Virus record (IMG/VR): IMGVR_UViG_3300030102_006999
Source of the DNA: an uncultured virus (IMG/VR IMGVR_UViG_3300030102_006999)
Lineage: Duplodnaviria; Heunggongvirae; Uroviricota; Caudoviricetes
Reading direction: 5' to 3' (one strand)
Length of the DNA stretch: 64,000 nt
Of this stretch, positions 24,101-40,913 are shown in pieces; the stretch's first letter is position 1; each line of letters begins with the position of its first letter. The notes under the pieces are model-generated. The model ran no database searches and was not told the origin of the DNA. It saw only the letters and a list, made by a program, of their open reading frames with translations. The translations under genes and the position numbers were made by a program.

Positions 24101-24307
24101 ATGGGAAATAAAAGAAAACACTTTGGAACTTGCGGGATGGTTTACACGATTGTATATCAAGAGTATAATGGCCAATCCGCCACCGCCTTGGTGTACGGTC
24201 CACCAGACCAAAAAAAGATGATGACTTTGGTAATGAGAGAGTACAAGCGATTGTTGTGTTTGATAAAGGGAAATCAGCAAGTTTTCTTTCCACCTAGTAA
24301 GTCTTGA
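24101..24307 (+). CDS. hypothetical protein
   Basis: GAGG RBS; stop is the TGA of the first repeat hexamer. Confidence 0.6.
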   Translation: MGNKRKHFGTCGMVYTIVYQEYNGQSATALVYGPPDQKKMMTLVMREYKRLLCLIKGNQQVFFPPSKS

Positions 24308-24358
24308 CATTCTCTTGACAACTTTTTTGTTGACGCGAGCCGTCAGCCATGCTAAATT
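24304..24358 (+). promoter_or_regulatory. compound promoter repeat copy 1
   Basis: TTGACA 24304, TTGACA 24315, TTGACG 24330, TAAATT 24353. Confidence 0.85.
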
Positions 24359-24387
24359 ATTATTACAAATCACACAGGAGTCCGTAA

Positions 24388-26313
24388 ATGGAAAACGATT
24401 TATCTTTAAACATTTCAACACACTTTGATATGGATTGTTGGCTTGCAGAAAATGACGGTCAAGATTTAGTAATCCCAATGGGGAAGAGTAAGCGCGACCC
24501 TGATGCGACATATTCTAAATCTGGTTGTTTGCAGGGTTTGAGAAAATATCAAGAAAACTTAGCGGCTGATGCACTAGTTCCAGAAACCTATTACTACGAT
24601 TCTTCTATGGCAGCCGGTATCGATATATATACATATATCGCAGGAAGTGACAATGTTCACATCACTCTGGTAGCCCAAACCCAGAGTGGCAAGACATCTG
24701 TTGCTTTCGCAACTTTTACGATGGTTAAAATTCACCACCCTACTTCGAAGCATATGGTGTATATTTCTATGCCAGCAGACAAAGATTTGGCAAAACAATC
24801 TGGACGAAGGCTAAAGCCGTTATCAAAAGTAGTTGTCGGTAGAGGTTGCTTGAGTAACATTTATTTAAACGCAGTTTATTGGTATGATAAGTGGTCTGCG
24901 TGCAATACTGAAGATGAACGACGGAAGGTGGAGCTAGACGCATTGACAGTGCAAGCAGCCCAAGGTAATGACTGGCTTGCTGCCCCGGTTATTTTCGACA
25001 ATACAGTCCTTTTTCTGGATGAATCTCATTTTGGAGCACAAAACACAAGCCAAATAAACAGAGTGCTTGAGCTTTGGGGTGTTCCTTTAAATAAGGACCC
25101 GGTGACATGGGAACGCTCTAATGTAAAGATTGTTACATCTAGTGCAACCCCTCATGCAGAAGTCGCATCATTGCGTTTGAGGCCTTGGAGCAAGAAAGTT
25201 ATTATGCGTCCGGGTAAAGGTTACATTGGACTACCAGAAATGCTGGCGGCAAACAAAATCATGGAAAGCTGGACTCTAAAGACTGAAAAAGACGTAGAGA
25301 GGCTAGTAGGCGAAGTAATTGAGCCACATTTGCTTACGCTCGGCACTGGCTATGGCTTAATCCGCCGAAGGACTCGACGACGCGGCTTGAATTTGCCATT
25401 ATCTCTTGAGAGGAAATTAAAATCTAAAGGATTTAGGGTGAAAAAAGGTATTCCAAAGTCAGGTGATGAACGACAATATGATGTAGCAATCATTGAATAT
25501 GACCAAGCAAGCAGGGATCAAAAAATGGATGATTTTCTTACAACCCCGGCGGCAAAAGTAGTGTCGAATGGAAAGTGGTTATCAAATCAGCCCCCTATAC
25601 CAACTATTATTTTAGTGAAGGAGAAGTGTAAACTAGGCGATACTGTGTCGAACCAGCATGTTAAGTTTGTTTTTGAGCGTATTAGCGTTAAGAAAAACGA
25701 CCCTGCTTTTCACGAGCAGTCATTAGCGGGCCGAATGACAGGATATGAAACTCATATACCAATGATTTATTCGCATACGCCATCAATTGTCCATTCCTGT
25801 TTTCACATTATTAGCGGATACCAGCCGGAAACAACTCCAAACGGTGCAAAATATGTAAAAACTAAGTCAAAAAGAGGATATCCGGCTATGTCTTTGACTT
25901 TGGACTTGAGCAAGATGTCAGATGAAGAACTTTCGGAAGTTCTTTGCAAGGGGAGGGCACAAAGTTTGCAAGGTAAAGCTATGGCATACAAGGCAATTTA
26001 TCGAGAATCTTTAGAGGCATCATCTGGGAGTTTAAAAGAGAAACTGAAAAGCATTAAAGATAAAAGAGGTAGAAGATATTCAATGTGGAACTGGGATGAC
26101 GCTGACAGCCGCTCCTATGTACACCCAGAAAAAGGCGAAGAGATTCAGCAAAATAGCAAATATATGTCGCATGGAAATCCGGCTTGTGTTTTTGTTGACA
26201 AAGAAGGGGACAGCAATACTTTGAAAGTTAGTTGGTATTTTGCTAAAGATGAAGTCACTGTCAAAGAAACATCATTGAATAATAAGAGCATGTATGCTAT
26301 TGCGGCAAAGTAG
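24388..26313 (+). CDS. SF2 (DExH) helicase-like protein
   Basis: AQTQSGKT Walker A, FLDESH, SAT motif III, EQSLAGRMTG motif VI-like. Confidence 0.75.
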   Translation: MENDLSLNISTHFDMDCWLAENDGQDLVIPMGKSKRDPDATYSKSGCLQGLRKYQENLAADALVPETYYYDSSMAAGIDIYTYIAGSDNVHITLVAQTQSGKTSVAFATFTMVKIHHPTSKHMVYISMPADKDLAKQSGRRLKPLSKVVVGRGCLSNIYLNAVYWYDKWSACNTEDERRKVELDALTVQAAQGNDWLAAPVIFDNTVLFLDESHFGAQNTSQINRVLELWGVPLNKDPVTWERSNVKIVTSSATPHAEVASLRLRPWSKKVIMRPGKGYIGLPEMLAANKIMESWTLKTEKDVERLVGEVIEPHLLTLGTGYGLIRRRTRRRGLNLPLSLERKLKSKGFRVKKGIPKSGDERQYDVAIIEYDQASRDQKMDDFLTTPAAKVVSNGKWLSNQPPIPTIILVKEKCKLGDTVSNQHVKFVFERISVKKNDPAFHEQSLAGRMTGYETHIPMIYSHTPSIVHSCFHIISGYQPETTPNGAKYVKTKSKRGYPAMSLTLDLSKMSDEELSEVLCKGRAQSLQGKAMAYKAIYRESLEASSGSLKEKLKSIKDKRGRRYSMWNWDDADSRSYVHPEKGEEIQQNSKYMSHGNPACVFVDKEGDSNTLKVSWYFAKDEVTVKETSLNNKSMYAIAAK

Positions 26314-26336
26314 CTAGTCGTATAGTATATTGTCTC

Positions 26337-26391
26337 TTGACATTTTCTTGACAACTTTTTTGTTGACAGTCAGAACAGGACGTGCTAAATT
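26337..26391 (+). promoter_or_regulatory. compound promoter repeat copy 2
   Basis: hexamers at 26337, 26348, 26363; TAAATT 26386. Confidence 0.85.
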
Positions 26392-26414
26392 TACATTACA
26401 AAACGAGGTGACTT

Positions 26415-26600
26415 ATGTCTAAAAACTTGGAGAGATATTGGCAGCTAGAATATCAGTTGCAGCTTTTGTGGGAAATGCCCCGCGACTGCCGCGACCATAA
26501 GCATATTGAAAAGCTGACAAATGAACAAAAAACCATTATCAATAATCTTCGAGATGACGAACGTCGCCTGTTTGAAGATTCGTTTTTATCCCATCACTAG
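26415..26600 (+). CDS. hypothetical protein
   Basis: GAGGTG RBS after repeat. Confidence 0.7.
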   Translation: MSKNLERYWQLEYQLQLLWEMPRDCRDHKHIEKLTNEQKTIINNLRDDERRLFEDSFLSHH

Positions 26601-26610
26601 AGAGAAAACC

Positions 26611-26841
26611 ATGAAAGATGCTGTAGCACACATAAATGATAACCTGTCTGTAGATATTGAGCTTCTACGCACACAACGTAATACCCTTCTGGAGATTCTG
26701 GAATGTGTCGATGGTTCAAAGCCTGACTTGTTAGAGGACTTTTTCGGTCTGGATAAACAACGGGCTTTCGACGCACTAAACGGAGTGACAAACTTTCTCG
26801 ATGCTGTCTTGGATGATGTCGAGCTTGGCCACACATTATAA
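26611..26841 (+). CDS. hypothetical protein
   Basis: Internal ATG start MKDAVAH. Confidence 0.6.
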   Translation: MKDAVAHINDNLSVDIELLRTQRNTLLEILECVDGSKPDLLEDFFGLDKQRAFDALNGVTNFLDAVLDDVELGHTL

Positions 26842-26863
26842 ATTTAACTAAGGAACAAACTAA

Positions 26864-27220
26864 ATGATTAAAGAATGTAAACACTGTCAAATCGAATTCG
26901 ACCTTTACTCACGTCGCAAAAAGCACGTCGGCGGCTATATTAACGAGTGTCCTGATTGTGTAGAAGAAAACGGAGGTGACCAATCACCACCGCGATATCT
27001 CGGTGTCACCGCTGGTAATGGCAAAATGTGCGATGTTACTATTCTAAAGTTTGAAGACCAAGCATCTCGCAACTCATTTCAGAAAGCATGGCGCAATAAT
27101 TCAGGACAAAACTTAGGAAAGGAGTGCCAGCTAGGCGAACATATTTCATCAACCGCTGGATTAAAGTTCAGTATTGTATCAGAAAATCGAGGTAATGATA
27201 ATCACAAAGGAAAGTTCTAA
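26864..27220 (+). CDS. Zn-ribbon protein
   Basis: CKHC...CPDC; AAGGA RBS. Confidence 0.65.
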   Translation: MIKECKHCQIEFDLYSRRKKHVGGYINECPDCVEENGGDQSPPRYLGVTAGNGKMCDVTILKFEDQASRNSFQKAWRNNSGQNLGKECQLGEHISSTAGLKFSIVSENRGNDNHKGKF

Positions 27221-27342
27221 TGGAGCATTTAACTAACTGTCATGGCGAGTGGACGATACTTGCCGCCTCAATGGGCTATTTCTCGTTTGTTATTTTGTGG
27301 ATAAGATTAAGATGGCAGACGTTCAAAGGAGATAGAGGATGA
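27220..27342 (+). CDS. small membrane peptide, 40 aa (not in ORF track)
   Basis: MEHLTNCHGEWTILAASMGYFSFVILWIRLRW...; TAATG coupling. Confidence 0.55.
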   Translation: MEHLTNCHGEWTILAASMGYFSFVILWIRLRWQTFKGDRG

Positions 27343-27482
27343 AAAAGAAAGCAAAAAAGCGAAATATCGTAGCCCTACAGATGCAACACCGACACAAAAA
27401 TGGAGGGTCTGCGGGCTTTCACAGTAAGAAAGGTTACTCTCGAAAGGAGAAACATAAAAAATGCGTTTTGACATTCTCTTGA
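27339..27482 (+). CDS. ArfA-like basic peptide, 47 aa (not in ORF track)
   Basis: MKKKAKKRNIVALQMQHRHKNGGSAGFHSKKGYSRKEKHKKCVLTFS; AAGGAG/GAGG RBS. Confidence 0.55.
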   Translation: MKKKAKKRNIVALQMQHRHKNGGSAGFHSKKGYSRKEKHKKCVLTFS

Positions 27483-27522
27483 CAAAATAACTGTTGACTT
27501 ACCACAAAATAATCTGTATAAT
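27468..27522 (+). promoter_or_regulatory. compound promoter repeat copy 3
   Basis: hexamers at 27468, 27479, 27494; TATAAT 27517. Confidence 0.85.
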
Positions 27523-27552
27523 TACTTCATAAACCAACACAGGAGCAACCAA

Positions 27553-27711
27553 ATGCCATTCGACCCAAACTATAAGCACATCGTAAGTTCAGAAGAATAC
27601 TATGAAAATATGTACGACTTCGGCGGAGACTATGATTCAATGCCGGAAGATATGGAGGATGAATGTCCAGAATGGATTCAAGAGCAGCTTGATGAAGAAC
27701 TGCCATTCTAA
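27553..27711 (+). CDS. acidic 52-aa peptide ending DEELPF, SSB-tail-like (not in ORF track)
   Basis: AGGAG RBS; first gene after repeat 3. Confidence 0.7.
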   Translation: MPFDPNYKHIVSSEEYYENMYDFGGDYDSMPEDMEDECPEWIQEQLDEELPF

Positions 27712-27715
27712 ATAA

Positions 27716-27961
27716 ATGCAGATAGAACCGGGCCAAATCCTCGACGAATATGATGTCTTGACAAATGAGCTTCTAGCTAGGTATATTGTTGTTGATACTA
27801 CAGATACATTTTCGTCGAATCGTATCAATGTTTTATGCGTGTACGATTCTCAAGAGTTTGATGTGCCCGGTTCTATCACATGCTTAGATGATAGTAGTAT
27901 ATTGGGAAATATCACTATTTACTGGAAATTGGATGGAGTGAGGATACTGGATGAAGATTAA
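27716..27961 (+). CDS. small beta-barrel paralogue family member
   Basis: IEPGQIL..ARYIVV..PGS..YWK. Confidence 0.7.
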   Translation: MQIEPGQILDEYDVLTNELLARYIVVDTTDTFSSNRINVLCVYDSQEFDVPGSITCLDDSSILGNITIYWKLDGVRILDED

Positions 27962-28232
27962 AAATGGCCAAATGATTGACCAGATGGCAGACTTCACTGC
28001 CCATAGTCAGGCTGTAGACGAAGCCCCATATATAATGTCTCGATATATTGTTATAGGGCAAGATGAAGAACTAGCCCATTTGTATGTTGTAAAGGGGTAT
28101 ACCGACCAACACGAACGAATTATCAATGACGTATCCGTACCGGGCATGATAGAACATTTATCGAAAAAGTATATTGTATCTAAAGAAGAATCCATAAGCA
28201 ACTTCTACTGGGAAGTGGTTAATGATATTTAG
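27951..28232 (+). CDS. small beta-barrel paralogue family member
   Basis: IKNGQMI..SRYIVI..PGM..YWEVV. Confidence 0.7.
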   Translation: MKIKNGQMIDQMADFTAHSQAVDEAPYIMSRYIVIGQDEELAHLYVVKGYTDQHERIINDVSVPGMIEHLSKKYIVSKEESISNFYWEVVNDI

Positions 28233-28518
28233 ATTTTGGGATACGCTAGACTTGAAAGCTGGCGATGTAATACGAATAAACGGAGATGAAATACATTCTT
28301 CTGTGCATATTGTTACACAAACTTATCGCCGTCCGTATGGTGATGGTAAAGTATTCGGAGCAGATGGGTATACTCTTTTATGTGATGAACCTTATTATGA
28401 CGATGATATGAGAGTTGGAGAGATAAACCCGCTCTACTTAGAAGAATTTTTAAAGCGTTCAGAAAGTAACTCTTTGGAAGTGCTATACCGTGTATATCCC
28501 ACTACTAATAAGCCCTAA
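28222..28518 (+). CDS. small beta-barrel paralogue family member
   Basis: LKAGDVI..VHIVT..VGEI. Confidence 0.65.
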   Translation: MIFRFWDTLDLKAGDVIRINGDEIHSSVHIVTQTYRRPYGDGKVFGADGYTLLCDEPYYDDDMRVGEINPLYLEEFLKRSESNSLEVLYRVYPTTNKP

Positions 28519-28780
28519 TCAGGGTGACATTATAGAAAGATATTGCACTCACAGGCGAGAGCTTGTGGGTGTTTTTCTGGTTATAAATCCTAGAAAGAAA
28601 GGAAGAAAGGACTTAATGGAGGCATGGTGTCTTTATAACTGCTACTATGAAGCTAACTTTAATAGGTTCAAAGGACTAAAGGCGGGGTCAAAAGTATCGA
28701 TTCATAGAATCACGCTACTTAGTGAGCATGAAGCCAAGCAAACAGGGGAGGCGAATTACTACGTTGTAAGGAAACAATAG
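28490..28780 (+). CDS. small beta-barrel paralogue family member
   Basis: PNQGDII..VFLVI..AGSKV. Confidence 0.65.
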   Translation: MYIPLLISPNQGDIIERYCTHRRELVGVFLVINPRKKGRKDLMEAWCLYNCYYEANFNRFKGLKAGSKVSIHRITLLSEHEAKQTGEANYYVVRKQ

Positions 28781-28784
28781 ACTC

Positions 28785-28839
28785 TTGACATTTACTTGAC
28801 AACTTTTCTATAGACAAGCCCATCTCAAACGTGTATAAT
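28785..28839 (+). promoter_or_regulatory. compound promoter repeat copy 4
   Basis: 28785, 28796, TAGACA 28811, TATAAT 28834. Confidence 0.85.
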
Positions 28840-28864
28840 GTATATGTAAATCAGGGAGAACTCG

Positions 28865-29104
28865 ATGTCCAACTCAAACAACAATGAAATCGTTAAATTG
28901 TCTACGTTAAACGTAGAATCTATCCAAGACTGGAACCAGATGGTCCCGGTTATTCGAGAGGTTTTCCAAGTTATGAACGGTCATACCGATTGGGCATTTC
29001 ATCACGAAGTGATAATGGACGGCCTTTTGTCTCTTGACCTTTCGGCGACTAAGAAAGCCTGTAGTGCGTTTCTGGAGGTCTTTCGCCCGCAGGAGATTCA
29101 ATAA
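28865..29104 (+). CDS. hypothetical protein
   Basis: GGGAG RBS after repeat. Confidence 0.7.
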   Translation: MSNSNNNEIVKLSTLNVESIQDWNQMVPVIREVFQVMNGHTDWAFHHEVIMDGLLSLDLSATKKACSAFLEVFRPQEIQ

Positions 29105-29105
29105 C

Positions 29106-29306
29106 ATGAACGAACTTGTAGCCACTTATATTATCAATAATTGCCCTTTGGAAGTTTATAAATGCTTTACACATTCTGGTAATGATGCTGAAGCGTTTTA
29201 TGATTTTGAATATCAGGGCCGCTGTATAAACCTTGGAGAACCTTGGTTCGACGACGGAGAAGGTATCCCCTCTAAGGAGGAAATCTGTGAAGTATTTTTC
29301 TCTTGA
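29106..29306 (+). CDS. hypothetical protein
   Basis: AGGAG RBS, MNELVATY; stop inside repeat 5. Confidence 0.6.
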   Translation: MNELVATYIINNCPLEVYKCFTHSGNDAEAFYDFEYQGRCINLGEPWFDDGEGIPSKEEICEVFFS

Positions 29307-29357
29307 CATTCTCTTGACAACTTTTTTGTAGACAAGACTTTTTCAAACGTGTATAAT
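29303..29357 (+). promoter_or_regulatory. compound promoter repeat copy 5
   Basis: 29303, 29314, TAGACA 29329, TATAAT 29352. Confidence 0.85.
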
Positions 29358-29406
29358 GTATATACAAGTTGAGCGATTCACTAACCCAAACAAAGGACTA
29401 TCACAC

Positions 29407-29751
29407 ATGGGAATTAGAAGCGACGTAGCATTAGGAATGACTTTGGAAGTATACCAAGCACTTTCAGATGAAAGTAGAGAAACTATTAGAGAGTGGTGTG
29501 GAGAACACCAAGATATTGGCGACGAAGGTATTTTATTTGTTGCCGATAGTGTGAAATGGTACGCCGATTCATTCGATGATTTAATCGCCTTGTATGAGGA
29601 TTTAGAAGACCAAGACTTCGAGCAGTTTCATGTCATTGTTGCAACACCGGAATACCCCAATAATACAGACTTAGATATCGGCGACTGGTACGATAACCCG
29701 TGGGGAATTTATAAGTATACAAGTTGCGAATTACGATGGGACCACGCATAA
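29407..29751 (+). CDS. acidic phage hypothetical protein
   Basis: MGIRSDVALG...VKWY; AAGGA RBS. Confidence 0.7.
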   Translation: MGIRSDVALGMTLEVYQALSDESRETIREWCGEHQDIGDEGILFVADSVKWYADSFDDLIALYEDLEDQDFEQFHVIVATPEYPNNTDLDIGDWYDNPWGIYKYTSCELRWDHA

Positions 29752-30023
29752 TGCAGGACTTTCCTTATGAAATTGGAGATATTATCTCTACGCCGGATTT
29801 AATCGGCGGAGTAGCTGGAATATTGGTTGAAGTAGAAAAGCTGGATGAGCCTGACGATACCTCGTGTTTGAATGTCACAACGTCTTTTGCGGCTAGGCAT
29901 CACCAGAATACCCGGACGCATCGAATCAAACTGGCTATTATCCAGAGTTGTACCTCTGCCTTCAAACCGGGCGAGGTATGTGACTTTTGGCCGCCACAGG
30001 GGGCGACATGGAAGAAGTGGTAA
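29751..30023 (+). CDS. small beta-barrel paralogue family member
   Basis: YEIGDII..GILV..KPGEV..TWKK. Confidence 0.7.
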   Translation: MQDFPYEIGDIISTPDLIGGVAGILVEVEKLDEPDDTSCLNVTTSFAARHHQNTRTHRIKLAIIQSCTSAFKPGEVCDFWPPQGATWKKW

Positions 30024-30385
30024 CTTCAGAAGATATACAGGTAGGTGATATTATCTCGGAGAGAGGCATAATATCAGAGCGTTGGAATCCAGAATACCGC
30101 GATATGGGCGCATACATGAATGAATTTACTCGCTTCGTCGTATTGTCCAAGGTTAACGTGGAAGATAGGCCAATGCTAATAACAGGCGCACGCCGGTTTT
30201 ATTTCAAAGTAGCTATTCTGTACGCTATTCCAGAAATAAGGGAAGTAATGAATAACGCGCACACTTATAAACTTACTGACTGGGAAGTTGACGATGAAGA
30301 TTACAGCGACGAGGCAACTTATTGGTGCTTAGAAACGGGCGAAGATGCCCCAGTAACACCGAGAGAGTGGGTAAGACTAGGGTGA
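30008..30385 (+). CDS. small beta-barrel paralogue family member
   Basis: IQVGDII..TRFVVL..VAILY..YW. Confidence 0.65.
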   Translation: MEEVVTSEDIQVGDIISERGIISERWNPEYRDMGAYMNEFTRFVVLSKVNVEDRPMLITGARRFYFKVAILYAIPEIREVMNNAHTYKLTDWEVDDEDYSDEATYWCLETGEDAPVTPREWVRLG

Positions 30386-30621
30386 AACTTGAAGATTTAG
30401 AAGTAGGTCATTTGTATAGGTATCAAGTCTTTCCCGGCGCACCCGTAGGGTATTGGATAATATTGGAGGAATTTCCTACCGACTCGCGGAGTGTGCATAG
30501 TAGGGACGGTTCGCCCCACCGAAGGTTCCGCTGGTTTTGCTTACAGGGTCCGGTTCTGAATAGGTACATGATTTTTGATATACCTGAAAGTCAAGTTCAT
30601 GCCTTAACTTTAATCTCTTGA
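30382..30621 (+). CDS. small beta-barrel paralogue family member (GTG start)
   Basis: DLEVGHLY..YWIILEE; stop inside repeat 6. Confidence 0.6.
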   Translation: MKLEDLEVGHLYRYQVFPGAPVGYWIILEEFPTDSRSVHSRDGSPHRRFRWFCLQGPVLNRYMIFDIPESQVHALTLIS

Positions 30622-34483: not shown

Positions 34484-34488
34484 CGCCC

Positions 34489-34543
34489 TTGACATTCTCT
34501 TGACAACTTTCTTATTGACTTAACCTTCCCCGGCGTGTATAAT
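34489..34543 (+). promoter_or_regulatory. compound promoter repeat copy 9
   Basis: 34489, 34500, TTGACT 34515, TATAAT 34538. Confidence 0.85.
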
Positions 34544-34568
34544 TACAGTACAAAACACGGAGAACTCA

Positions 34569-34889
34569 ATGCCGCTTCCTTTCGCCATAGCAGGTAAATC
34601 AGATAAAAAAAGACCTATATATGTAACAAACCCAATGACAGTCCATGATGTCAAGCCGGGCATGCTTTTAACATATCGGCACTATGACTGGTATGATAAT
34701 CCTAAAAATATCACCACCGAAAGTCTCTGGCTGGTTTTGGAGCAGCTTGAATTTCGCAGTAGAGAGGCGACGAAGTTCAGAATAGTTTGCCTTAAATCGG
34801 GACTTCCCGATGCGCCCGATTTAGGTATGACAGTGGATTATCTTTTCGACTATAAAACTATACATAGATTTAGCCCCAGCCAATCTTAA
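34569..34889 (+). CDS. small beta-barrel paralogue family member
   Basis: DVKPGMLL..LWLVLE..IVCL..LGMTV. Confidence 0.7.
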   Translation: MPLPFAIAGKSDKKRPIYVTNPMTVHDVKPGMLLTYRHYDWYDNPKNITTESLWLVLEQLEFRSREATKFRIVCLKSGLPDAPDLGMTVDYLFDYKTIHRFSPSQS

Positions 34890-34899
34890 ATATAATCTC

Positions 34900-34954
34900 T
34901 TGACATTCTCTTGACAACTTTTCTATAGACAAGACCTTTTCAAGCGTGTATAAT
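34900..34954 (+). promoter_or_regulatory. compound promoter repeat copy 10
   Basis: 34900, 34911, TAGACA 34926, TATAAT 34949. Confidence 0.85.
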
Positions 34955-34979
34955 GTATATACAAAACACGGAGAACTTA

Positions 34980-35261
34980 ATGCCTAACACTAATGAGCCA
35001 ACAATGACAGCAGAAGAACGCGACGCAAAAATTAAGCATTACCTTAGACTTATTGAAGAAATGAGCGGCACTTGGCTCGACAGGGACCGATACCGCGATT
35101 GTATCAACAACTTTAGGCGCAATATCCGCGAACTTGAAGGGATGGCAGTCAAAACAAGCTACTCGCATGGAAAATGCAAGGCGGAATTGGCCGATAGCCC
35201 CGACGTTGTTCGTTCTGAAAGCTGGGGCAACGGAACTGTCAGCTTTACAAGCTGGAAATAA
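34980..35261 (+). CDS. hypothetical protein (monocistronic cassette)
   Basis: GGAG RBS; bounded by repeats 10 and 11. Confidence 0.7.
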   Translation: MPNTNEPTMTAEERDAKIKHYLRLIEEMSGTWLDRDRYRDCINNFRRNIRELEGMAVKTSYSHGKCKAELADSPDVVRSESWGNGTVSFTSWK

Positions 35262-35265
35262 TCTC

Positions 35266-35320
35266 TTGACATTCTCTTGACAACTTTTTTGTAGACAAGA
35301 CTCAAAATAACGTGTATAAT
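35266..35320 (+). promoter_or_regulatory. compound promoter repeat copy 11
   Basis: 35266, 35277, TAGACA 35292, TATAAT 35315. Confidence 0.88.
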
Positions 35321-35389
35321 GTATATACATTTTGAGCGATTCACTAACCCACTTACTAACTAAATCACACACTATACTGGAGCTATCAC

Positions 35390-36538
35390 ATGTCAGTTGC
35401 TATCACTTTTGCTAACCTTAAATCTATGATCCCAACCCTTCTTTCAGGCGACGAGCGCGACCTTTATTCCGTTCTTATCCGTGGCCGTCACGGTATCGGC
35501 AAGTCTTGGGTTGCTTATCAGACCGCTTCCGGCCTTGCATGGGACGGCGCAAAGACCCGTCCAATTAAGGACGGCGAAACTTCGCTTCCGGTTGTTGAGA
35601 TTCGTGCATCTCAAATGACCGAGGGTGACTTGCTTGGTCTGCCTTCGCCTCACGATGTAAACGTGAACGGCGAACAAGCGGCTTCCTTACGCCCTTTTGC
35701 TTGGCTTGTCAAAGCCTGTACTGAACCCGTTGTCTTGTTCCTCGACGAAGTTGACCGAGCGACAACCGAGGTTCGTCAAGGGTTTTTCCAATTGGGTGAC
35801 TCTCGCCAGATTAACGGATGGAAACTTCATCCCGGCACCGTTGTATTCGGTGCGGTCAATGGCGGCGTTCATGCTGCACAATACCAAGTCGCTGATATGG
35901 ACCCTGCTGAACTTGACCGCTGGGTTACGTTCGACGTTGAGCCTTCCGTTGAAGATTGGCTTGACTGGGGCAAAACCGAGATTCATGCTATTGTTTGGGA
36001 CTTTATCAACCAGAACCGCGAACACTTAGAGCACAAGGGTGAATTTGAACCGGGTACTGTGTATCCTTCACGCCGCTCATGGCACCGTTTGAATAATACG
36101 CTTGCGAAGGTCAATATGCTCGACGACGAGAAAGCTGACCTTGGTTTGCTTTTCAACCTTTCTCACGGTTTTGTTGGCTTTGAAGCTGCTGTATCTCTAC
36201 GTGACTTCGTTGAAAACTACGAGCGACAAGTAACGATTGAAGATATTCTGGATGCTGGAAAGCTAGATAAGACCAAGGATTTCGGCCTTGTGGACCATGT
36301 AGCCCTTATTGAGAAGATGGATGCTGCTGGCGTATTTACCGCCTCCATCCCCAATTCTCGCTTAATCAATCTTGTCAACTACTTCGACACCCTTCCGTCA
36401 GAAGCTAGGATGAAACTCTTTACTACTCTGACCGCTGCAAACAGTCAGATATCCGCCGAGAATGGCTCGAACTTCCATAAGGAGCTTGCAAACCAAGGTA
36501 AGGTCGAGGCGTTCATTAAGCTACTAGGTGGAAACTAG
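35390..36538 (+). CDS. MoxR-type AAA+ ATPase
   Basis: GRHGIGKS Walker A, LFLDEVDR Walker B, GAVN sensor I, MDPAELDRW, PSRRSW. Confidence 0.88.
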   Translation: MSVAITFANLKSMIPTLLSGDERDLYSVLIRGRHGIGKSWVAYQTASGLAWDGAKTRPIKDGETSLPVVEIRASQMTEGDLLGLPSPHDVNVNGEQAASLRPFAWLVKACTEPVVLFLDEVDRATTEVRQGFFQLGDSRQINGWKLHPGTVVFGAVNGGVHAAQYQVADMDPAELDRWVTFDVEPSVEDWLDWGKTEIHAIVWDFINQNREHLEHKGEFEPGTVYPSRRSWHRLNNTLAKVNMLDDEKADLGLLFNLSHGFVGFEAAVSLRDFVENYERQVTIEDILDAGKLDKTKDFGLVDHVALIEKMDAAGVFTASIPNSRLINLVNYFDTLPSEARMKLFTTLTAANSQISAENGSNFHKELANQGKVEAFIKLLGGN

Positions 36539-36564
36539 TACCCGCGTGTGATAGCAAAGGTTGA

Positions 36565-36590
36565 AGGGGGCGAAAGCCCCCTCCCTTTTC
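36565..36590 (+). terminator. GNRA-tetraloop hairpin terminator
   Basis: AGGGGGC-GAAA-GCCCCCT then CCCTTTTC. Confidence 0.7.
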
Positions 36591-36592
36591 TC

Positions 36593-36647
36593 TTGACATT
36601 TTTTTGACAACTTTTTTGTAGACTTTTGTGCTGCCAGCGTGTATAAT
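36593..36647 (+). promoter_or_regulatory. compound promoter repeat copy 12
   Basis: 36593, 36604, TAGACT 36619, TATAAT 36642. Confidence 0.85.
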
Positions 36648-36672
36648 TATATCATAACTTGGAGCTATTCAC

Positions 36673-37965
36673 ATGACAACTACCGAAACCAAGCCTTTCA
36701 ATCTTGACGAGCACATTGTGTCACTTCTGCGAGATGAGCCTTTCTTCGCCGCTTTATCGCGACGACTCGAAAAGGTTGCTTCTAACTCGGTTCCTACCGC
36801 TGGCGTTCGATTCAATAAGGACCGTTGCCGGTTTGAACTTTACTATAATCCTGCTTTTATGGCAGATATCCACGAGCAAGACCCCAAATTTGTTAAGGGT
36901 GTCTTGTTACATGAGTTTTATCATATCATACTTTTGCACGTAACTTCTCGCATGCCAGAGGGTAAAATGTCACGTAAGTGGAACTTTGCGACCGACTTGG
37001 CGATTAACAGTGAGCTAACTGTCTTTTCGCGAGATGGGTCTACTCCTACTGGCTACGCCGTCGAAAGTTCTCTTTTACCACTTGATAAGGCTCTTATTCC
37101 TACGGTCGGCCAATTTGCTAACTTTGACCCTCACTTATCCGCTGAAGAATATATGAAGCTGCTTCCCGATGGCGAATCAGAAGAAACCCAAGACCAAGCT
37201 GGACAATCAGGCGAACCCGGCGAGGGCGAAGGTCAGCCCGGTCAAGGTGGTGGCAGCGAAAGAGGCCCTAGTTCCAATGGTTTCGACGATCATTCAGACT
37301 GGGGTGACTCCGATGGTACGGATGAAACTCGCAAAATTGCAGAAGAACGCTTAAAAGACGCTATCAAAGAGGCTTATGTCGAGGCCCAAACTCGTGGCTT
37401 TGGGTCTGTATCTTCTGCTATGAAACGAACGATTAAAGAGGTTATAACTCCAAAAGTCAACTGGCGTTCTATCCTTCGTTCTTTCGTCAAAGCTAGTCAA
37501 CGCGCCGACCGTTCTTCCACAATCAAGAGGTTAAACCGTCGCTATGCTTATATCCATCCCGGTAAGAAAGCCAAGCGTCAGGCGAAAATCGCGGTTTCTA
37601 TTGACCAATCGGGCAGTGTCTCCGATAGTATGCTTGCAGCCTTCTATTCGGAGCTTGAGAAGCTGGCTCAACTTGCAGAGTTTACGATTGTTCCCTTCGA
37701 TACTGAAGTATCAACCGAGCATGTTCATGTGTGGAAGAAGGGCGAGCGTCACAACAAAACTCGCTATATGCATGGAGGAACCTGCTTTAACGCCCCAACT
37801 AAATGGGTAAACGAAAACAGCTTTGACGGTCACATCGTATTGACCGATATGGAGGCTCCAAAGCCAATTCCTAGCAAGTGCCAGCGTATGTGGATGACAA
37901 CTAAAGAGTGTGCAGAACGCCCTTACTTCCAGACTAATGAAAGGATTATCGCAATCAATGACTGA
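36673..37965 (+). CDS. zincin peptidase plus VWA-like domain (DUF2201-type), MoxR partner
   Basis: LLHEFYH, WNFATDLAIN, G/E-rich linker, IDQSGS MIDAS, GGT, LTD. Confidence 0.85.
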   Translation: MTTTETKPFNLDEHIVSLLRDEPFFAALSRRLEKVASNSVPTAGVRFNKDRCRFELYYNPAFMADIHEQDPKFVKGVLLHEFYHIILLHVTSRMPEGKMSRKWNFATDLAINSELTVFSRDGSTPTGYAVESSLLPLDKALIPTVGQFANFDPHLSAEEYMKLLPDGESEETQDQAGQSGEPGEGEGQPGQGGGSERGPSSNGFDDHSDWGDSDGTDETRKIAEERLKDAIKEAYVEAQTRGFGSVSSAMKRTIKEVITPKVNWRSILRSFVKASQRADRSSTIKRLNRRYAYIHPGKKAKRQAKIAVSIDQSGSVSDSMLAAFYSELEKLAQLAEFTIVPFDTEVSTEHVHVWKKGERHNKTRYMHGGTCFNAPTKWVNENSFDGHIVLTDMEAPKPIPSKCQRMWMTTKECAERPYFQTNERIIAIND

Positions 37966-38230
37966 TGCAGGATATATGCAAGTACCAGAAGATGTCAAAT
38001 TAGTCAAGTTTGAGACTTATGAATTAGAAAAGGGTGATGTTATCACCCTTTACCGCGCTACGATAGGCGAGGTTGCAAGGTACTTAATCACTAGCGCAGA
38101 CCATTCTATAGTTGGCTGCATCGTTTTGCTCGATAGGACAGGAAACAACTGGACGGGCAACTATATGCACTTTGCGAAATGCGAGTTAGATACTGATAGA
38201 TGGAGGAAACTTGTCAGCACCGCAGCCTAA
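37958..38230 (+). CDS. small beta-barrel paralogue family member
   Basis: LEKGDVI..ARYLIT..CIVL..RWRKL. Confidence 0.7.
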   Translation: MTDAGYMQVPEDVKLVKFETYELEKGDVITLYRATIGEVARYLITSADHSIVGCIVLLDRTGNNWTGNYMHFAKCELDTDRWRKLVSTAA

Positions 38231-38480
38231 CATCGGTGATTTCTTAGTTTGCTACGATCCTTTGAAGGCGCGTGAGATCTTTCGTTGTATCGTAATCGAA
38301 GAAAAGCCAGATAAATACGAGACAATCGTGCTATTACATAATGAAGATGGTGAAGAAAACGGCTTCCGTCCCGGCGATAAGTTCAGCATGGGAAAACCAG
38401 ACTACAAAGAGCTTTTTCGAGCACCGTGTGATATTGACGGTACTTACTGGCGAATCGAGGAAATGATAGATGGGACTTAG
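38211..38480 (+). CDS. small beta-barrel paralogue family member
   Basis: PNIGDFL..FRCIVI..RPGDK..YWRI. Confidence 0.7.
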   Translation: MSAPQPNIGDFLVCYDPLKAREIFRCIVIEEKPDKYETIVLLHNEDGEENGFRPGDKFSMGKPDYKELFRAPCDIDGTYWRIEEMIDGT

Positions 38481-38664
38481 AAGGGGAGATATGATTAAGT
38501 CTAAGATAAACGGCATTGAAGGTATACTATTGAATATTCTAACATCGAAATACAATAGCTATTTTCATAAGGTCGAGATATTTTGTACTTACTCCCCCCA
38601 CAATCCCCAGTTTACTGGTAAAGTAATCGCAATAGACCAGAATAACCTAGTAAGGAAGCACTAA
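38470..38664 (+). CDS. small beta-barrel paralogue family member
   Basis: LRRGDMI..GILL..IFCTY..TGKV. Confidence 0.65.
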   Translation: MGLRRGDMIKSKINGIEGILLNILTSKYNSYFHKVEIFCTYSPHNPQFTGKVIAIDQNNLVRKH

Positions 38665-38889
38665 ATGAAGTTCAAAGCAGGTCAAGTTATTAAAAACTCC
38701 CATTCAACCTTCATTGTGGTGGATATAATACCAGAGGACCGCAACCGCAAATCGCAGTTATTAAAGGTTATTCCTTTACAATCGACTCTTTTGCCCATAG
38801 GCGAAGCAAACCCTTTCCGAATTGCTTATCCCGGTGCATGGGAGGTTGTAAGTGATTTATCGCCGGAGGCGAAAGAGCAAACTATCTAA
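38665..38889 (+). CDS. small beta-barrel paralogue family member
   Basis: FKAGQVI..FIVVD..IGE..AWEVV. Confidence 0.7.
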   Translation: MKFKAGQVIKNSHSTFIVVDIIPEDRNRKSQLLKVIPLQSTLLPIGEANPFRIAYPGAWEVVSDLSPEAKEQTI

Positions 38890-38892
38890 TAT

Positions 38893-39123
38893 GTGGAGAA
38901 AGTATACTTACCGGGCCAATTAATCTTATATCTTCGTACAGGAGCTATATACTTGCTTTTGGAAGAATGTGAGATGACCCGACTAAATCCTGCTTGGAAA
39001 GCAGAAAATGGATGGGCCTTCAGAGCATACGTTGTATATACAGGTCGCTCTTGGTCAAAAGTCGGTTCGGAAGTCGATTTATTTATATTAAAGAAATCTA
39101 TACATTACGAGGTATTGAGTTAA
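38893..39123 (+). CDS. small beta-barrel paralogue family member
   Basis: YLPGQLI..IYLLLEE..AYVVY..VGSE..YEVL. Confidence 0.7.
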   Translation: MEKVYLPGQLILYLRTGAIYLLLEECEMTRLNPAWKAENGWAFRAYVVYTGRSWSKVGSEVDLFILKKSIHYEVLS

Positions 39124-39230
39124 TGCAGGAAGAAGGCGGGCAACCGGCGGCCCCCTTAAAAAGTGATGAGCGTGATTCGCGGATTTTTTTTCGCCCAAAT
39201 TTTTTCAAAACGCCCTTAGAAAGTGATTAA

Positions 39231-39512
39231 ATGACAACAGACGAGAAACCAAAGTTAGACCCTACCGAATACTCAATCGGTGATATGATAGGTATGAAGT
39301 TCCAATATTTCAATCAGGTAACTCAGACCATGGATAATCGAGAGATAAGGGGTATTATTATGGAAAAAGATAATAGTGAAGGTTGGAAGCTACTTTTGAC
39401 CTATGATACACACAAAGGAACATCTTTGTTATCCCCAGTCCAATATTCGATTAGTTGGCTTCGAAACCGCAATAAGAGCGATTCTCTATGGAGGGTTACA
39501 GATGAGCCATAA
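39231..39512 (+). CDS. small beta-barrel paralogue family member
   Basis: YSIGDMI..RGIIM..LLLTY..LWRV. Confidence 0.65.
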   Translation: MTTDEKPKLDPTEYSIGDMIGMKFQYFNQVTQTMDNREIRGIIMEKDNSEGWKLLLTYDTHKGTSLLSPVQYSISWLRNRNKSDSLWRVTDEP

Positions 39513-39789
39513 GCAAATAAACAAGTTTCAACCGGGAAACTTTGTATATCATGTACCAACAAAGTCAAATTGGATAATACTTACTTTTAAGTTGAGCGAT
39601 AGTTATTCAGCTTCAAACTCTTATATCGCCACGGCTTATTGTGTAAACACAGGGTCTAAACAAAAGACTACCGGAAAAGACGGGATTGTCCGAGGTTATT
39701 GGAATCAGGGAGAAATTGATACTTGGAACCTAACCAATCGTGATGTGGACCTAAAAGATAAAATATGGATTGTTAAAAGTCAAGTTTGA
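39502..39789 (+). CDS. small beta-barrel paralogue family member
   Basis: FQPGNFV..NWIIL..AYCV..QGEI..IWIV. Confidence 0.7.
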   Translation: MSHKQINKFQPGNFVYHVPTKSNWIILTFKLSDSYSASNSYIATAYCVNTGSKQKTTGKDGIVRGYWNQGEIDTWNLTNRDVDLKDKIWIVKSQV

Positions 39790-39798
39790 ACGTGACAA

Positions 39799-40089
39799 AT
39801 GGTGCTTAACATGTGTGAGGATAGAAAAAAAAATATATTCCAGCCGGGCGATATTGTAGTTGAAACCCTCGATAACACGCCAATAGGCAAATACATAATA
39901 ACAAGTATCGAAATGAATGATAAGAAAAAAGGTAAGAGCAAACTTAATTATTCTCTCTATGTATTATGGACTAATGGTCATTGGCCCGAAAGCCAAGGTT
40001 CAATCTTCGTAATAACGAATTTACATAACCTGACGAATCGTCGCGACAGACACGGTGACCCATATACATGGAAGAAACTCGATAACTAA
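39799..40089 (+). CDS. small beta-barrel paralogue family member
   Basis: FQPGDIV..GKYIIT..LYVLW..QGSI..YTWKKL. Confidence 0.7.
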   Translation: MVLNMCEDRKKNIFQPGDIVVETLDNTPIGKYIITSIEMNDKKKGKSKLNYSLYVLWTNGHWPESQGSIFVITNLHNLTNRRDRHGDPYTWKKLDN

Positions 40090-40102
40090 AGAAATAAATA
40101 AT

Positions 40103-40483
40103 ATGATAAACTCCAGCAAAATAGGATATGGCGATATAATACTTGAAAGCACACAAATCGATGCTAGAGACGATAAAAAAGAAATATTAGAGGTTGCAAG
40201 GTATATAATCGTTGGTAAGTACATAGAGGAGGTTTATGACAAACCGTTCCAATTAAAGGAGTATGAAACTGAATACTTCAAGGTTATTATGTTATATATA
40301 AATAAACAGAATCAGAGCACATGGGCACAACAGAAAAAGCCCGGTTCAAGGTATCTTTTGAGCGAACACGAAATAACGAACTACCATGACTGGTCATTCA
40401 TAAATAAGCTAGATTTAAACTGGCCTTCTGGTAGTATAGAAGTGGGGGAAAATGGAACAAAGTGGGATGAAGGGGATTGGTAG
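40103..40483 (+). CDS. small beta-barrel paralogue family member
   Basis: IGYGDII..ARYIIV..VIMLY..KPGSR..DWSF. Confidence 0.7.
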   Translation: MINSSKIGYGDIILESTQIDARDDKKEILEVARYIIVGKYIEEVYDKPFQLKEYETEYFKVIMLYINKQNQSTWAQQKKPGSRYLLSEHEITNYHDWSFINKLDLNWPSGSIEVGENGTKWDEGDW

Positions 40484-40652
40484 AAAACGTAGTTATAACT
40501 TAGTGTATTAAAGGATTGTTAATAGATAAGGGAGAAAGGGAGGAGTTTACTGTCTGATATAGTACATTCTAACTAGATAATCAAGTAATAATATGTAATA
40601 ATAAAATGACAATAAAACACTTGACAACAATAAAGGATAATCGAGGATAAAA

Positions 40653-40754
40653 GTGAATAATATGGAACCGCCTCGCATTGTGGAGTTTCTTATTGCGGGA
40701 TCACTAGTCTATATGTCAACTTTGGCATTATGCTATTACATCCTACTATATTAA
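40653..40754 (+). CDS. possible small membrane peptide (not in ORF track)
   Basis: (V)NNMEPPRIVEFLIAGSLVYMSTLALCYYILLY*; GAGG upstream. Confidence 0.35.
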   Translation: MNNMEPPRIVEFLIAGSLVYMSTLALCYYILLY

Positions 40755-40858
40755 GGAACACAACAAAGCGCCCCGCGTGAATAAAATACAAAAGGGCAAC
40801 GTGAAAAAAGTTTAAAAACTTGCATCTTATTGTGCAGGTTTAAACTTGCTTATTCGAC

Positions 40859-40913
40859 TTGACATCTTTTTGACAAGTTTGTTATAGACAAGTGCGTCCA
40901 AAACGAGTATAAT
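40859..40913 (+). promoter_or_regulatory. compound promoter repeat copy 13
   Basis: 40859, 40870, TAGACA 40885, TATAAT 40908. Confidence 0.85.

Follow-up and report, generated by a model that had tools for sequence, protein, structure and literature searches.

The window, by which we mean the whole 64,000-nucleotide stretch of DNA analysed here, derives from a member of a large clade of uncultured marine phages that carry a T4-like capsid gene and a DnaE polymerase. It contains a gene cluster served by 13 repeated promoter elements, which we term class B (Table 1). Of the 42 cluster ORFs scanned, 3 scored over the Pfam cut-off (zinc knuckle, AAA ATPase and DUF2201), and there was one weak match. 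A preliminary description had identified the elements as a pair of TTGACA hexamers at an invariant distance upstream of a core promoter. Our scan of the window confirmed an exact TTGACAT-N4-TTGACAA on the plus strand at all 13 starts. The geometry was identical throughout, with boxes repeating at a period of 11 bp (13 of 13), a -35-type hexamer at +26 and a -10 at +49. When up to two mismatches were allowed, the pair matched 15 times in the window, compared with 1.11 expected matches (maximum 5) over 100 shuffles.

Table 1 Class B promoters, the gene cluster that they serve and the flanking class A promoters (window coordinates).
Feature	Position	Strand	-35	-10	Description
Left-flanking class A promoter	23509..23537	+	TTGACA	TATAAT	Perfect TTGACA-17-TATAAT; A-tract upstream; without pair
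Class B-served gene cluster	24304..43018	+			About 40 ORFs, mainly small, mostly of no known family
Class B promoter 1	24304..24358	+	TTGACG	TAAATT	Boxes at +0/+11; ahead of 641-aa ORF at 24388
Class B promoter 2	26337..26391	+	TTGACA	TAAATT	Sole perfect -35
Class B promoter 3	27468..27522	+	TTGACT	TATAAT	
Class B promoter 4	28785..28839	+	TAGACA	TATAAT	
Class B promoter 5	29303..29357	+	TAGACA	TATAAT	
Class B promoter 6	30618..30672	+	TAGACA		Same as promoter 11 from boxes to +68
Class B promoter 7	32101..32155	+	TAGACA		Left breakpoint (32123) of natural 1.5-kb cassette deletion
Class B promoter 8	33603..33657	+	TAGACA		Right breakpoint (33646) of 1.5-kb deletion; ahead of zinc-knuckle protein gene
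Class B promoter 9	34489..34543	+	TTGACT		Hairpin and T-run immediately upstream
Class B promoter 10	34900..34954	+	TAGACA		
Class B promoter 11	35266..35320	+	TAGACA		Ahead of MoxR-like ATPase gene (35390-36538); breakpoint (35297) of rearranged variant
Class B promoter 12	36593..36647	+	TAGACT		Strong terminator-like hairpin (36565-36582) directly upstream; ahead of VWA/metallopeptidase gene
Class B promoter 13	40859..40913	+	TAGACA		Final one in series
Right-flanking class A promoter	43019..43048	+	TTGACA	TATAAT	TTGACA-18-TATAAT; A-tract upstream; without pair

All 13 window elements have the composition of a sigma-70-type promoter, namely a -35-like hexamer, a spacer of 17 ± 1 bp, and a -10 with A at position 2 and T at position 6. 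The -10 was TATAAT in 11 elements and TAAATT in 2. The -35 was TAGACA in eight elements, TTGACT in two, and TAGACT, TTGACG and TTGACA in one each, in agreement with the earlier count of TAGAC in nine and a single perfect hexamer. Mean pairwise identity across the elements was 0.92 in the pair region, 0.84 in the -35 and 0.91 in the -10, as against 0.40 in the 17-bp spacer and 0.37 in the 20 bp upstream. The spacers were said to diverge freely, and this roughly holds, apart from elements 30618 and 35266, which share the same sequence from the boxes through +68. The elements had also been described as intergenic, which does not hold for five of the 13, in which the longest upstream ORF (picked by eye) extends into the boxes; in four of these five, its stop codon is a TGA within box 1. 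Clear hairpins lie upstream of 34489, 35266, 36593 and 40859, with a possible one at 26337 (4-5 of 13), and in most elements without a hairpin the upstream ORF either stops no more than 23 bp away or reaches into box 1.

Class B is a second, discrete class of host sigma-70-type promoters in this phage. The remainder of the window is served by class A promoters, which combine a perfect TTGACA with A-rich sequence upstream and lack the pair. As previously claimed, the pair is absent from the other promoters of the window: none of the 27 core-promoter matches elsewhere on the plus strand carried it. Among 92 core promoters from the window and five relatives, chosen on the -35 and -10 alone, 53 had both boxes with at most one mismatch each (41 perfect), 32 had at least three mismatches per box, and 7 were intermediate. 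UP elements consist of A/T-tracts at about -42 and -52. A-tracts are present in this UP-like zone in class A promoters and in pair-less sister clades, whose cluster promoters have phased A-tracts at -45..-40, -54..-49 and -65..-59. In class B, by contrast, the zone where class A has A-tracts holds C-TTGACA-W boxes at -61 and -50. Class B elements probably mark a separately controlled set of small genes. Of the earlier proposal that they co-regulate the whole early region, the marking of one co-regulated gene block stands, and early expression of the cluster is a point that we only infer.

We analyzed the conservation of the pair in relatives sharing 70% amino-acid identity in DnaE and 51-92% in the cluster ATPase. 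At least three pairs were found in 59 of 80 sampled relative loci and none in 20, with 593 pairs lying on the gene strand versus 22 on the other. The family searches imposed the 11-bp step, which fixes the period in relatives; the distance from the pair to the -35, in 424 unique pairs with a recognisable core promoter, was 26 bp in 368, 25 bp in 52 and another value in 4. We also compiled 316 unique family promoters, selected by core-promoter features and thus all sigma-70-type by construction. Their box cores were 97-100% conserved, a figure that follows preselection at no more than one mismatch per box, so that bias is absent only from the way in which mismatches are spread over positions, whereas position 6 of the -35 was A in only 27%. 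These data support the earlier view that selection acts on the upstream pair. The relatives' core promoters are mostly near consensus (TTGACt-17-TATAtT with TGn). Within genomes, variant boxes are dispersed over different promoters, without clade-wise switching, and the specificity of the reader is therefore constant, as expected for a conserved host protein. The exact triple pattern occurred only 4 times in 185,579 species genomes, compared with about 4 by chance according to our own arithmetic. The count is thus about that expected by chance, and these genomes give no indication of a host regulon built on this architecture.

The class B promoters are also sites of genetic exchange. In metagenome contigs, gene cassettes were gained, lost or moved with breakpoints inside class B promoters: the joints 32123->33646 and 35297->28827 were each present in runs of two studies, 26368->30656 was present in one run, and 27460->28783, which ends at the elements, was likewise seen, all in contig data where assembly artefacts at repeats are possible. 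In these natural variants, promoter modules of ~60-80 bp serve as joints for gene-cassette exchange. PeSL (promoter-early stem-loop) cassettes of T4-like phages, as described in the part of PMC4122927 available to us, are comparable, being repeated sigma-70-type promoter modules among small variable genes in a hyperplastic region of phages with T4-type structural genes, and they have been proposed to provide homology for cassette recombination and to be homogenised by gene conversion. In both systems, gene indels and exchanges end at the modules (PMC4122927; here, the contig joints, with the same proviso on artefacts). PeSL modules, however, have an AT-rich zone upstream of the -35 together with a stem-loop, whereas the class B zone holds two TTGACA boxes and a hairpin lies directly upstream of few elements.

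Other known promoter types share some of these features. T4-type early promoters with UP elements combine -35 and -10 hexamers close to consensus with a 17-bp spacer and a further element between -40 and -60. Class A promoters belong to this type, as do the cluster promoters of sister clades that lack the pair. Class B instead has sequence-specific boxes, whose centres at -58 and -47 fall between the positions of the A-tracts. T4 middle promoters (MotA box plus AsiA, "sigma appropriation") are likewise a distinct promoter class of a T4-type phage marked by an extra box. The MotA box takes the place of the -35 at about -30, whereas class B retains its -35 and has its boxes far upstream. In promoter P41 of a Felix O1-like phage, a second conserved TTGACA adjoins the -35 (PMC3185647, in the part available to us). 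Its hexamers are 12 bp apart, the second lying within the spacer, and P41 as described has neither a third hexamer nor the -61/-50 pair.

The boxes proved distinct from a -35. Position 6 was A in 624 of 632 boxes but in 86 of 316 -35s (Fisher p = 2e-134), and position 1 was T in 263 of 316 box 1 copies compared with 315 of 316 -35s (p = 6e-16). In the boxes, A is therefore required at position 6 and C is tolerated at position 1, the reverse of the -35 in the same promoters. The third box is spoiled at position 2 in the window (TAGACA) and at position 6 in relatives (TTGACT/C/G). Three -35-like hexamers in a row could represent three overlapping independent promoters, each -35 with its own -10 at 16-18 bp. 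A -10-like hexamer at this distance followed neither box in any of the 13 window elements, and in the family it followed box 1 in 3 and box 2 in 1 of the 316 promoters. This alternative, in which the upstream hexamers pair with other -10s, had been a concern in the preliminary description and can be dismissed for practical purposes. Because the boxes have no -10 partner and their base preferences are unlike those of the true -35, they are neither promoters nor ordinary sigma sites. RNA polymerase might still read them, as extra docking sites for sigma region 4 or as an unusual substitute for a UP element. Holoenzyme would then be captured beside a deliberately weaker -35, raising occupancy relative to host promoters, or polymerase would be held poised or sequestered. 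In favour of this, the boxes reproduce the -35 consensus exactly and share the flanking C of class A -35s, the variant found most often among them, TTTACA, is common among -35s as well, and they fill the zone where other promoters carry UP-like A-tracts. No phage reader was found in the relatives searched, and the constant specificity over a divergent clade fits a universally conserved reader. However, a holoenzyme contains one sigma, and with no -10 partner its binding at the boxes would be non-productive and compete with the real -35. In addition, box 2 is separated from the -35 by a step of 15 bp, which would place the two on different helical faces, and simple capture needs no strictly fixed 25/26-bp offset. 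The opposite preferences at positions 6 and 1 also weaken the earlier idea that extra -35 copies recruit or sequester holoenzyme, and we consider reading by RNA polymerase unlikely.

Domain and family comparisons in relatives did not find a phage-encoded reader of the boxes, contrary to the phage activator considered earlier. An OmpR-type domain (Trans_reg_C), the MotA C-terminal domain (MotCF) and AsiA were each over the cut-off in 0 of 14 complete relatives, and no HTH family was found in the ORFs scanned of relative G006 (150 of 195 ORFs of at most 400 aa, out of 226 located). A small sigma-region-4-like protein does not track the pair, being present in all three no-pair genomes and missing from 4 of 11 pair genomes. 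All complete genomes encode an RHH-like protein, whose predicted DNA-reading strand differs from one pair genome to another. When three pair genomes were compared with three no-pair genomes, the only pair-specific families were a thioredoxin-like protein, an FKBP and a 99-aa protein, the last of which was also found in no-pair genome G016. The failure of these candidates counts against an unrecognised phage protein that reads all three boxes, including the -35, and switches the cluster off (or on) at a set time, as does the systematic spoiling of the third box. Such a protein would resemble T4 MotA/AsiA in its role as a temporal switch while being unrelated to them. It is common for phages to use factors of their own in the timing of gene classes, and most cluster genes are of no known family. 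Sister clades, moreover, have other clade-specific motifs upstream of their cluster promoters (GAGATCATTGA; CTTTCC..CTTTCCCC), which look as if every clade had its own factor. On balance, we judge this reading distinctly unlikely. It is also conceivable that no trans-acting reader exists and that the modules are alike only as homology for cassette recombination, homogenised by gene conversion. The breakpoints inside promoters, the near-identical modules in the window's subclade and the PeSL precedent in T4-like phages (PMC4122927, in the part available to us) agree with this. Homogenisation works within one genome, however, and cannot keep the 8-bp boxes and the 25/26-bp offset alike between genomes with a protein identity of only 51-56%, in which the sequence that separates and flanks the boxes diverges. 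With upstream hairpins at so few elements as well, this explanation appears very improbable.

We tentatively favor, at somewhat less than an even chance, a reading of the pair as an operator to which a protein binds in head-to-tail tandem, with a host OmpR/PhoB-type regulator as the best fit. The protein would occupy the pair as a head-to-tail tandem dimer in a class-I-type position centred near -52, from which it would contact RNA polymerase. This operator would give the cluster its own control, apart from the other sigma-70 promoters of the phage. The best-fitting reader would be a host winged-helix response regulator of the OmpR/PhoB family, and the second choice an unrecognised phage protein. 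The window elements have the site geometry of this family, two direct repeats of 6-8 bp at a 10-11 bp period, and the resemblance noted earlier, in the 11-bp head-to-tail arrangement and the TGACA/TGTCA core, is upheld by the parts of PMC4415409 and PMC6525291 available to us. HLR1, the site of cyanobacterial RpaB, consists of two 8-nt direct repeats, (G/T)TTACA(T/A)(T/A), and activates when centred about 50 nt upstream; cyanophage genomes are also reported to contain it (PMC6525291). The sites of M. tuberculosis PhoP are direct repeats of 7 bp separated by 4 bp (PMC4832192), and the E. coli PHO box, with the core CTGTCAT, is bound head-to-tail (PMC4415409). Like these sites, as far as these sources describe them, the pair consists of two direct repeats about one helical turn apart that are predicted to be read head-to-tail. 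It shares the TT-x-ACA core of HLR1 and, centred near -52, its activating position (PMC6525291), and its TGACA corresponds, on the other strand, to the TGTCA of CTGTCAT (PMC4415409). Compared with HLR1 (KTTACAWW-N2-KTTACAWW), the boxes match at 7/8 and 6-7/8 positions with one extra spacer base. The pair departs from HLR1, as described, in its period of 11 rather than 10 bp and in G rather than T at position 3, where G occurs in 84-93% of boxes. The PHO box usually has the form CTGTCAT-N4-CTGTCAY and replaces the -35, whereas the pair sits farther upstream than the -35 and in the opposite orientation, with the TGTCA core on the opposite strand only and a 4-bp spacer that is not A/T-rich. These phages lack psbA, so a cyanobacterial host is not indicated. 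Several observations count against an operator: the exact sigma-70 -35 consensus in the boxes, and their likeness to class A -35s of the same genomes, would be a coincidence for a response-regulator site; known sites are matched only imperfectly; the near-consensus core promoters of most relatives should fire without an activator; and the species genomes gave no indication of a corresponding host regulon.

A more specific proposal, which we regard as doubtful, is that this whole clade of abundant phages has placed its variable accessory-gene cluster under the control of a host two-component response regulator, through a tandem site that replaces the UP-element zone. If so, a tandem OmpR/PhoB-type site in every cluster promoter would double as a perfect -35 look-alike. 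The first gene programme of the phage would then sense host physiology, such as phosphate, light/redox or envelope stress, at each infection.

The window carries 13 exact copies of TTGACAT-N4-TTGACAA, all on the plus strand, and a search allowing up to two mismatches returned 15 matches, against a mean of 1.11 and a largest value of 5 in 100 shuffles. The preliminary description had placed 13 compound promoters here, and every one was found at its position (listed in the table of features), and in 13/13 position +26 holds a -35-type hexamer and position +49 a -10. We refer to these promoters as class B and name each by its start; their two upstream TTGACA boxes (box 1 at +0, box 2 at +11) are the pair, and the block of small genes at 24304..43018 is the cluster. 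If the -10 is taken to span -12..-7, box 1 covers -61..-55 and box 2 covers -50..-44. The -35 reads TAGACA in eight elements, TTGACT in two, and TAGACT, TTGACG and TTGACA in one each, while the -10 is TATAAT in 11/13 and TAAATT in 2/13. Mean pairwise identity among the 13 was 0.92 in the pair region, 0.84 in the -35 and 0.91 in the -10, but only 0.40 in the 17-bp spacer and 0.37 in the 20 bp upstream; promoters 30618 and 35266 show no difference through +68. The elements had also been described as intergenic, but in five of the 13 the upstream ORF, picked by eye, enters the boxes. At 24307, 29306, 30621 and 33606 the TGA in box 1 is the stop codon of the longest upstream ORF (again a by-eye choice), so that coding sequence overlaps the regulatory box at four of the 13 elements. 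Untranslated leaders are longest at promoters 29303 and 35266, which have in common a leader of about 20 nt, TTGAGCGATTCACTAACCCA, 3' of the -10; this leader may be a regulatory RNA element.

A core-promoter scan of the window (-35 with at most two mismatches, spacer of 16-18 bp, good -10) gave 39 plus-strand matches. Twelve are compound elements, promoter 24304 falling slightly below the threshold, and none of the remaining 27 has the pair, in agreement with the earlier statement that promoters elsewhere lack it. The strong ones among these 27 make up class A, the other sigma-70-type promoters of the window; their -35 is a perfect TTGACA in every case except 47609 (TTGACT), and most have an A-rich stretch immediately upstream. 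Class B is restricted to 24.3-40.9 kb, where it serves about 40 plus-strand ORFs, mostly small. A Pfam scan of 42 cluster ORFs placed over the cut-off a zinc-knuckle protein, a MoxR-like AAA ATPase and a DUF2201 VWA/metallopeptidase, with one weak match besides. Class A serves both flanks, with genes of DNA metabolism and others, including DnaE, PurA, dUTPase, GMP reductase or IMPDH, ClpP and GroEL.

Features of the window and of related or comparison loci (window coordinates unless a locus is named)
Feature	Coordinates	Strand	Remarks
Class B promoters (starts)	24304, 26337, 27468, 28785, 29303, 30618, 32101, 33603, 34489, 34900, 35266, 36593, 40859	+	pair present
Class A promoters (strong matches)	473, 683, 4477, 6160, 7166, 10624, 13943, 20559, 23509, 43019, 43622, 47609, 50405	+	no pair
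Leader TTGAGCGATTCACTAACCCA	about 29365-29385 and 35328-35348		promoters 29303 and 35266
Adenylosuccinate synthetase	4534-5535
IMPDH/GMP-reductase family enzyme	8056-9105
RHH-like protein	9107-9430	+	107 aa
Very acidic protein	9468-10166		217-232 aa; follows RHH-like gene
ClpP	10996-11595
GroEL-type chaperonin	14002-15573
99-aa protein	16411-16710	+	no known family
Zinc-knuckle protein	33690-34124	+	144 aa; translation broken by N run
UvdE UV endonuclease	43673-44620
tmRNA gene, full length	47837-48178	+	Rfam RF00023, 123.6 bits; tag peptide ANNNNQFKQIALAA
tRNA-Ala(TGC) gene	54366-54441	+
Zinc-ribbon + sigma-70 region 4 protein	L146:2986-3231		81-83 aa; relative G003
Zinc-ribbon + sigma-70 region 4 protein	L147:3737-3988	-	81-83 aa; relative G005
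Doubled TTGACA of P41, then TATAAATA	L290:21515-21560		Felix O1

The phage lies far from cultured ones. Megablast with 12 kb of the window returned no close cultured relative, its 641-aa protein had no match among cultured phages, and its DnaE reached at most 30% identity to theirs. In a motif scan of IMG/VR, the same compound architecture appeared, among the matches listed, on many contigs of 100-200 kb. Five of these have window genes in common, three of them complete; amino-acid identity to the window is 70% for DnaE in the three complete relatives and 56-84% for the cluster ATPase in all five. The three complete relatives carry a distant T4-type major capsid gene; its strongest matches in cultured phages are Flavobacterium phage immuto (45%), Microcystis phage Mel-JY01 (47%) and Rhodothermus phage RM378. 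Between 92 and 96% of the window's sampled words are present in marine metagenome runs from four studies, and the cyanophage marker psbA was found in 0/5 relatives. The complete relative G006 has an additional block with glycosyl- and sulfotransferases and a GDP-mannose dehydratase.

We extended the analysis through the ATPase, which has 337 relatives in IMG/VR, and took 80 loci, each with up to 10 kb on either side. The pair recurs well beyond the window: on the gene strand, at least three pairs occur in 59 of the 80 loci and one or two in a single locus, and 20 loci lack the pair. Over all loci, 593 pairs lie on the gene strand compared with 22 on the opposite strand. In six complete genomes the pairs are gathered in a single 10-15 kb block with one or two strays, and no-pair genomes (relatives without the pair) have 0-2 pairs anywhere. 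The class B promoters are a discrete class: when promoters were collected by -35 and -10 alone in the window and the cluster regions of five relatives (n=92), 53 had both boxes with at most one mismatch each (41 with none), 32 had at least three mismatches in each box and 7 were intermediate.

The distance from boxes to -35 is fixed. A recognisable core promoter lies 3' of the pair in 424 of 536 unique pair-bearing stretches; counted to the -35, the distance is 26 bp for 368 of these, 25 bp for 52 and a different one for 4; the 25-bp offset is concentrated in six loci and is the sole offset in L174 and L190. The boxes are under purifying selection, as had been proposed for the pair. Box positions 2, 4 and 5 stand at 1.0 among the 316 unique class B promoters with the 26-bp offset, a set chosen with at most one mismatch per box, which inflates absolute box frequencies and leaves the positions of mismatches informative. 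The base directly 5' is C in.76 of box 1 and.93 of box 2 copies in this set. The variants CTGACA, TTTACA and TTAACA are dispersed over the promoters within each genome, with no switch by clade. The specificity of the boxes is unlike that of sigma: A6 occurs in 624/632 boxes compared with 86/316 -35s (p = 2e-134), and T1 in 263/316 box 1 copies compared with 315/316 -35s (p = 6e-16).

Base frequencies in 316 class B promoters (box values inflated by the mismatch limit)
Site	1	2	3	4	5	6	7
Box 1	T.83	T 1.0	G.93	A 1.0	C 1.0	A.97	T.79
Box 2	T.93	T 1.0	G.84	A 1.0	C 1.0	A 1.0	A.79
-35	T 1.0	T.94	G.95	A.91	C.89	A.27

Several roles for the boxes were considered and rejected. They are not promoters themselves: a -10-like hexamer follows box 1 or box 2 by 16-18 bp in 0/13 window elements, and across the family it follows box 1 in 3/316 and box 2 in 1/316, compared with 316/316 for the true -35, by construction. 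A divergent minus-strand promoter using the reversed box 2 was seen at just 2/13 elements, and in the relatives the consensus 5' of box 1 shows no conserved -10. In a search for a host regulon of this architecture, the triple pattern had four exact matches in 185,579 species genomes, about the number expected by chance from our own arithmetic, and we rejected the boxes as a copy of such a regulon. The T4 middle-mode system was likewise discarded, with the MotA C-terminal domain and AsiA over the cut-off in 0/14 complete genomes.

We then consider the reader, the protein taken to bind the boxes. The preliminary description had suggested looking for a phage gene of HTH, sigma-region-4-like or response-regulator type. 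A sigma-region-4 gene does exist, initially in 2/3 complete relatives and then in 10/14, adjoining the RHH-like gene; it is missing from the syntenic site in the window (gap 9430-9468) and in the relative G002. It was rejected as reader because it is present in 3/3 no-pair genomes and missing from 4/11 pair genomes, the latter including the window's closest relatives. As for the other types, Trans_reg_C was over the cut-off in 0/14 complete genomes, and no HTH-type Pfam family was found in the 150 ORFs scanned in G006, a complete close relative (226 ORFs located, 195 of at most 400 aa, 150 of these scanned). The RHH-like protein, a homologue of which has a sub-threshold NikA-like/RHH match, occurs in 11/11 complete genomes, no-pair ones included; it was rejected since its predicted DNA-reading N-terminal strand varies among pair genomes, which is at odds with constant box specificity. 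The zinc-knuckle gene comes first after promoter 33603, and each of the five relatives first examined has a homologue in its cluster region. The gene product has two CX2CX4HX4C knuckles; knuckles of this kind, known from retroviral nucleocapsids, usually bind nucleic acid in single-stranded form. Both this protein and a 198-aa cluster protein are present in pair and no-pair loci and were rejected as readers. A crude clustering of gene content in three pair and three no-pair genomes found no pair-specific DNA-binding family and left a thioredoxin-like protein, an FKBP and the 99-aa protein. The clustering had overlooked the 99-aa gene of the no-pair genome G016, which a profile search detected, placing the family in 11/11 pair and 1/3 no-pair complete genomes; its profile gave nothing meaningful against solved structures. 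A phage-encoded reader thus finds no support in these searches.

The boxes are probably the site of a regulator, a host or a phage reader being counted together. Such a protein would bind both boxes head-to-tail on one helix face, given the 11-bp period, and, with its site centred near -52, would influence RNA polymerase from there. As the third box, the -35 would be kept from a good box form, with position 6 altered in the relatives and position 2 in the window; this spoiling fits a reader barred from sitting on the -35. The constant specificity over a divergent clade, together with the lack of a phage candidate, favours a host protein. Phage phi29, which has Spo0A boxes at its early promoters, would be an earlier case of a lytic phage that reads a response regulator of its host. 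Among known kinds of protein, response regulators of the OmpR/PhoB family would, by analogy, fit best. Head-to-tail binding is described for the E. coli PHO box (PMC4415409), whose core CTGTCAT is the phage box core in reverse complement; M. tuberculosis PhoP recognises 7-bp repeats spaced by 4 bp (PMC4832192); and the HLR1 of RpaB, (G/T)TTACA(T/A)(T/A)-N2-repeat, is activating if its centre lies about 50 nt upstream (PMC6525291). No known regulator site, however, matches the boxes fully, and the boxes are identical to the -35 consensus. These two points keep alive a different explanation, in which RNA polymerase itself reads the boxes as extra sigma sites; we regard it as rather unlikely.

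A doubled TTGACA also occurs in Felix O1; in the Felix O1 sequence, promoter P41 (PMC3185647) has two hexamers 12 bp apart, the second within the spacer, and no upstream pair. This doubling is a related oddity with an architecture different from class B. The Felix O1 sequence continues after the doubled TTGACA with TATAAATA. We take TATAAATA to be the T4 late-promoter consensus, and it may be relevant to how P41 is read.

In the no-pair clades, cluster promoters carry other upstream sequences. Those of L217 and L175 (n=22) have phased A-tracts at -45..-40, -54..-49 and -65..-59, a classical UP-like pattern; those of L228 and L219 have the motif GAGATCATTGA at variable distance; and in L220 the motif CTTTCC..CTTTCCCC abuts the -35. 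Since promoters of the same cluster bear A-tracts or other motifs in these clades, the pair occupies the upstream-contact zone, and it is one among several clade-specific solutions for the cluster.

Comparison of contigs from four marine metagenome runs with window 24000-41200 revealed variant joints within class B promoters, read from assembled contigs, so that some may be assembly artefacts at repeats. Joint 32123->33646 occurs in runs of two studies, and its 20 intervening letters rebuild a class B promoter whose +26 hexamer is TTGACC and whose spacer is 17 bp long; a 1.5-kb cassette is therefore absent. Joint 35297->28827, also in runs of two studies, alters gene order, and joints 26368->30656 and 27460->28783 were found in one run each. 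Contig ends tend to coincide with class B promoters. PeSL elements of T4-like phages are described as behaving in the same way (PMC4122927). Unlike PeSL elements, class B promoters have an upstream hairpin in only 4-5/13 cases.

Our literature search found no description of this promoter architecture, which varies on two known themes, sigma-70 phage promoters under regulation and cassettes of the PeSL type. To our knowledge, almost nothing is known of how uncultured marine phages regulate their genes. In a large clade of them, a simple cis-element that can be recognised in the bare sequence divides the sigma-70 promoters into two classes and marks a fast-evolving cluster, and this short, modular element offers a handle for locating the variable cluster and its cassette boundaries in metagenomes. 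Boxes read by RNA polymerase would add a new type to the upstream promoter elements; a host regulator as reader would tie the expression of phage genes to the physiology of the host.
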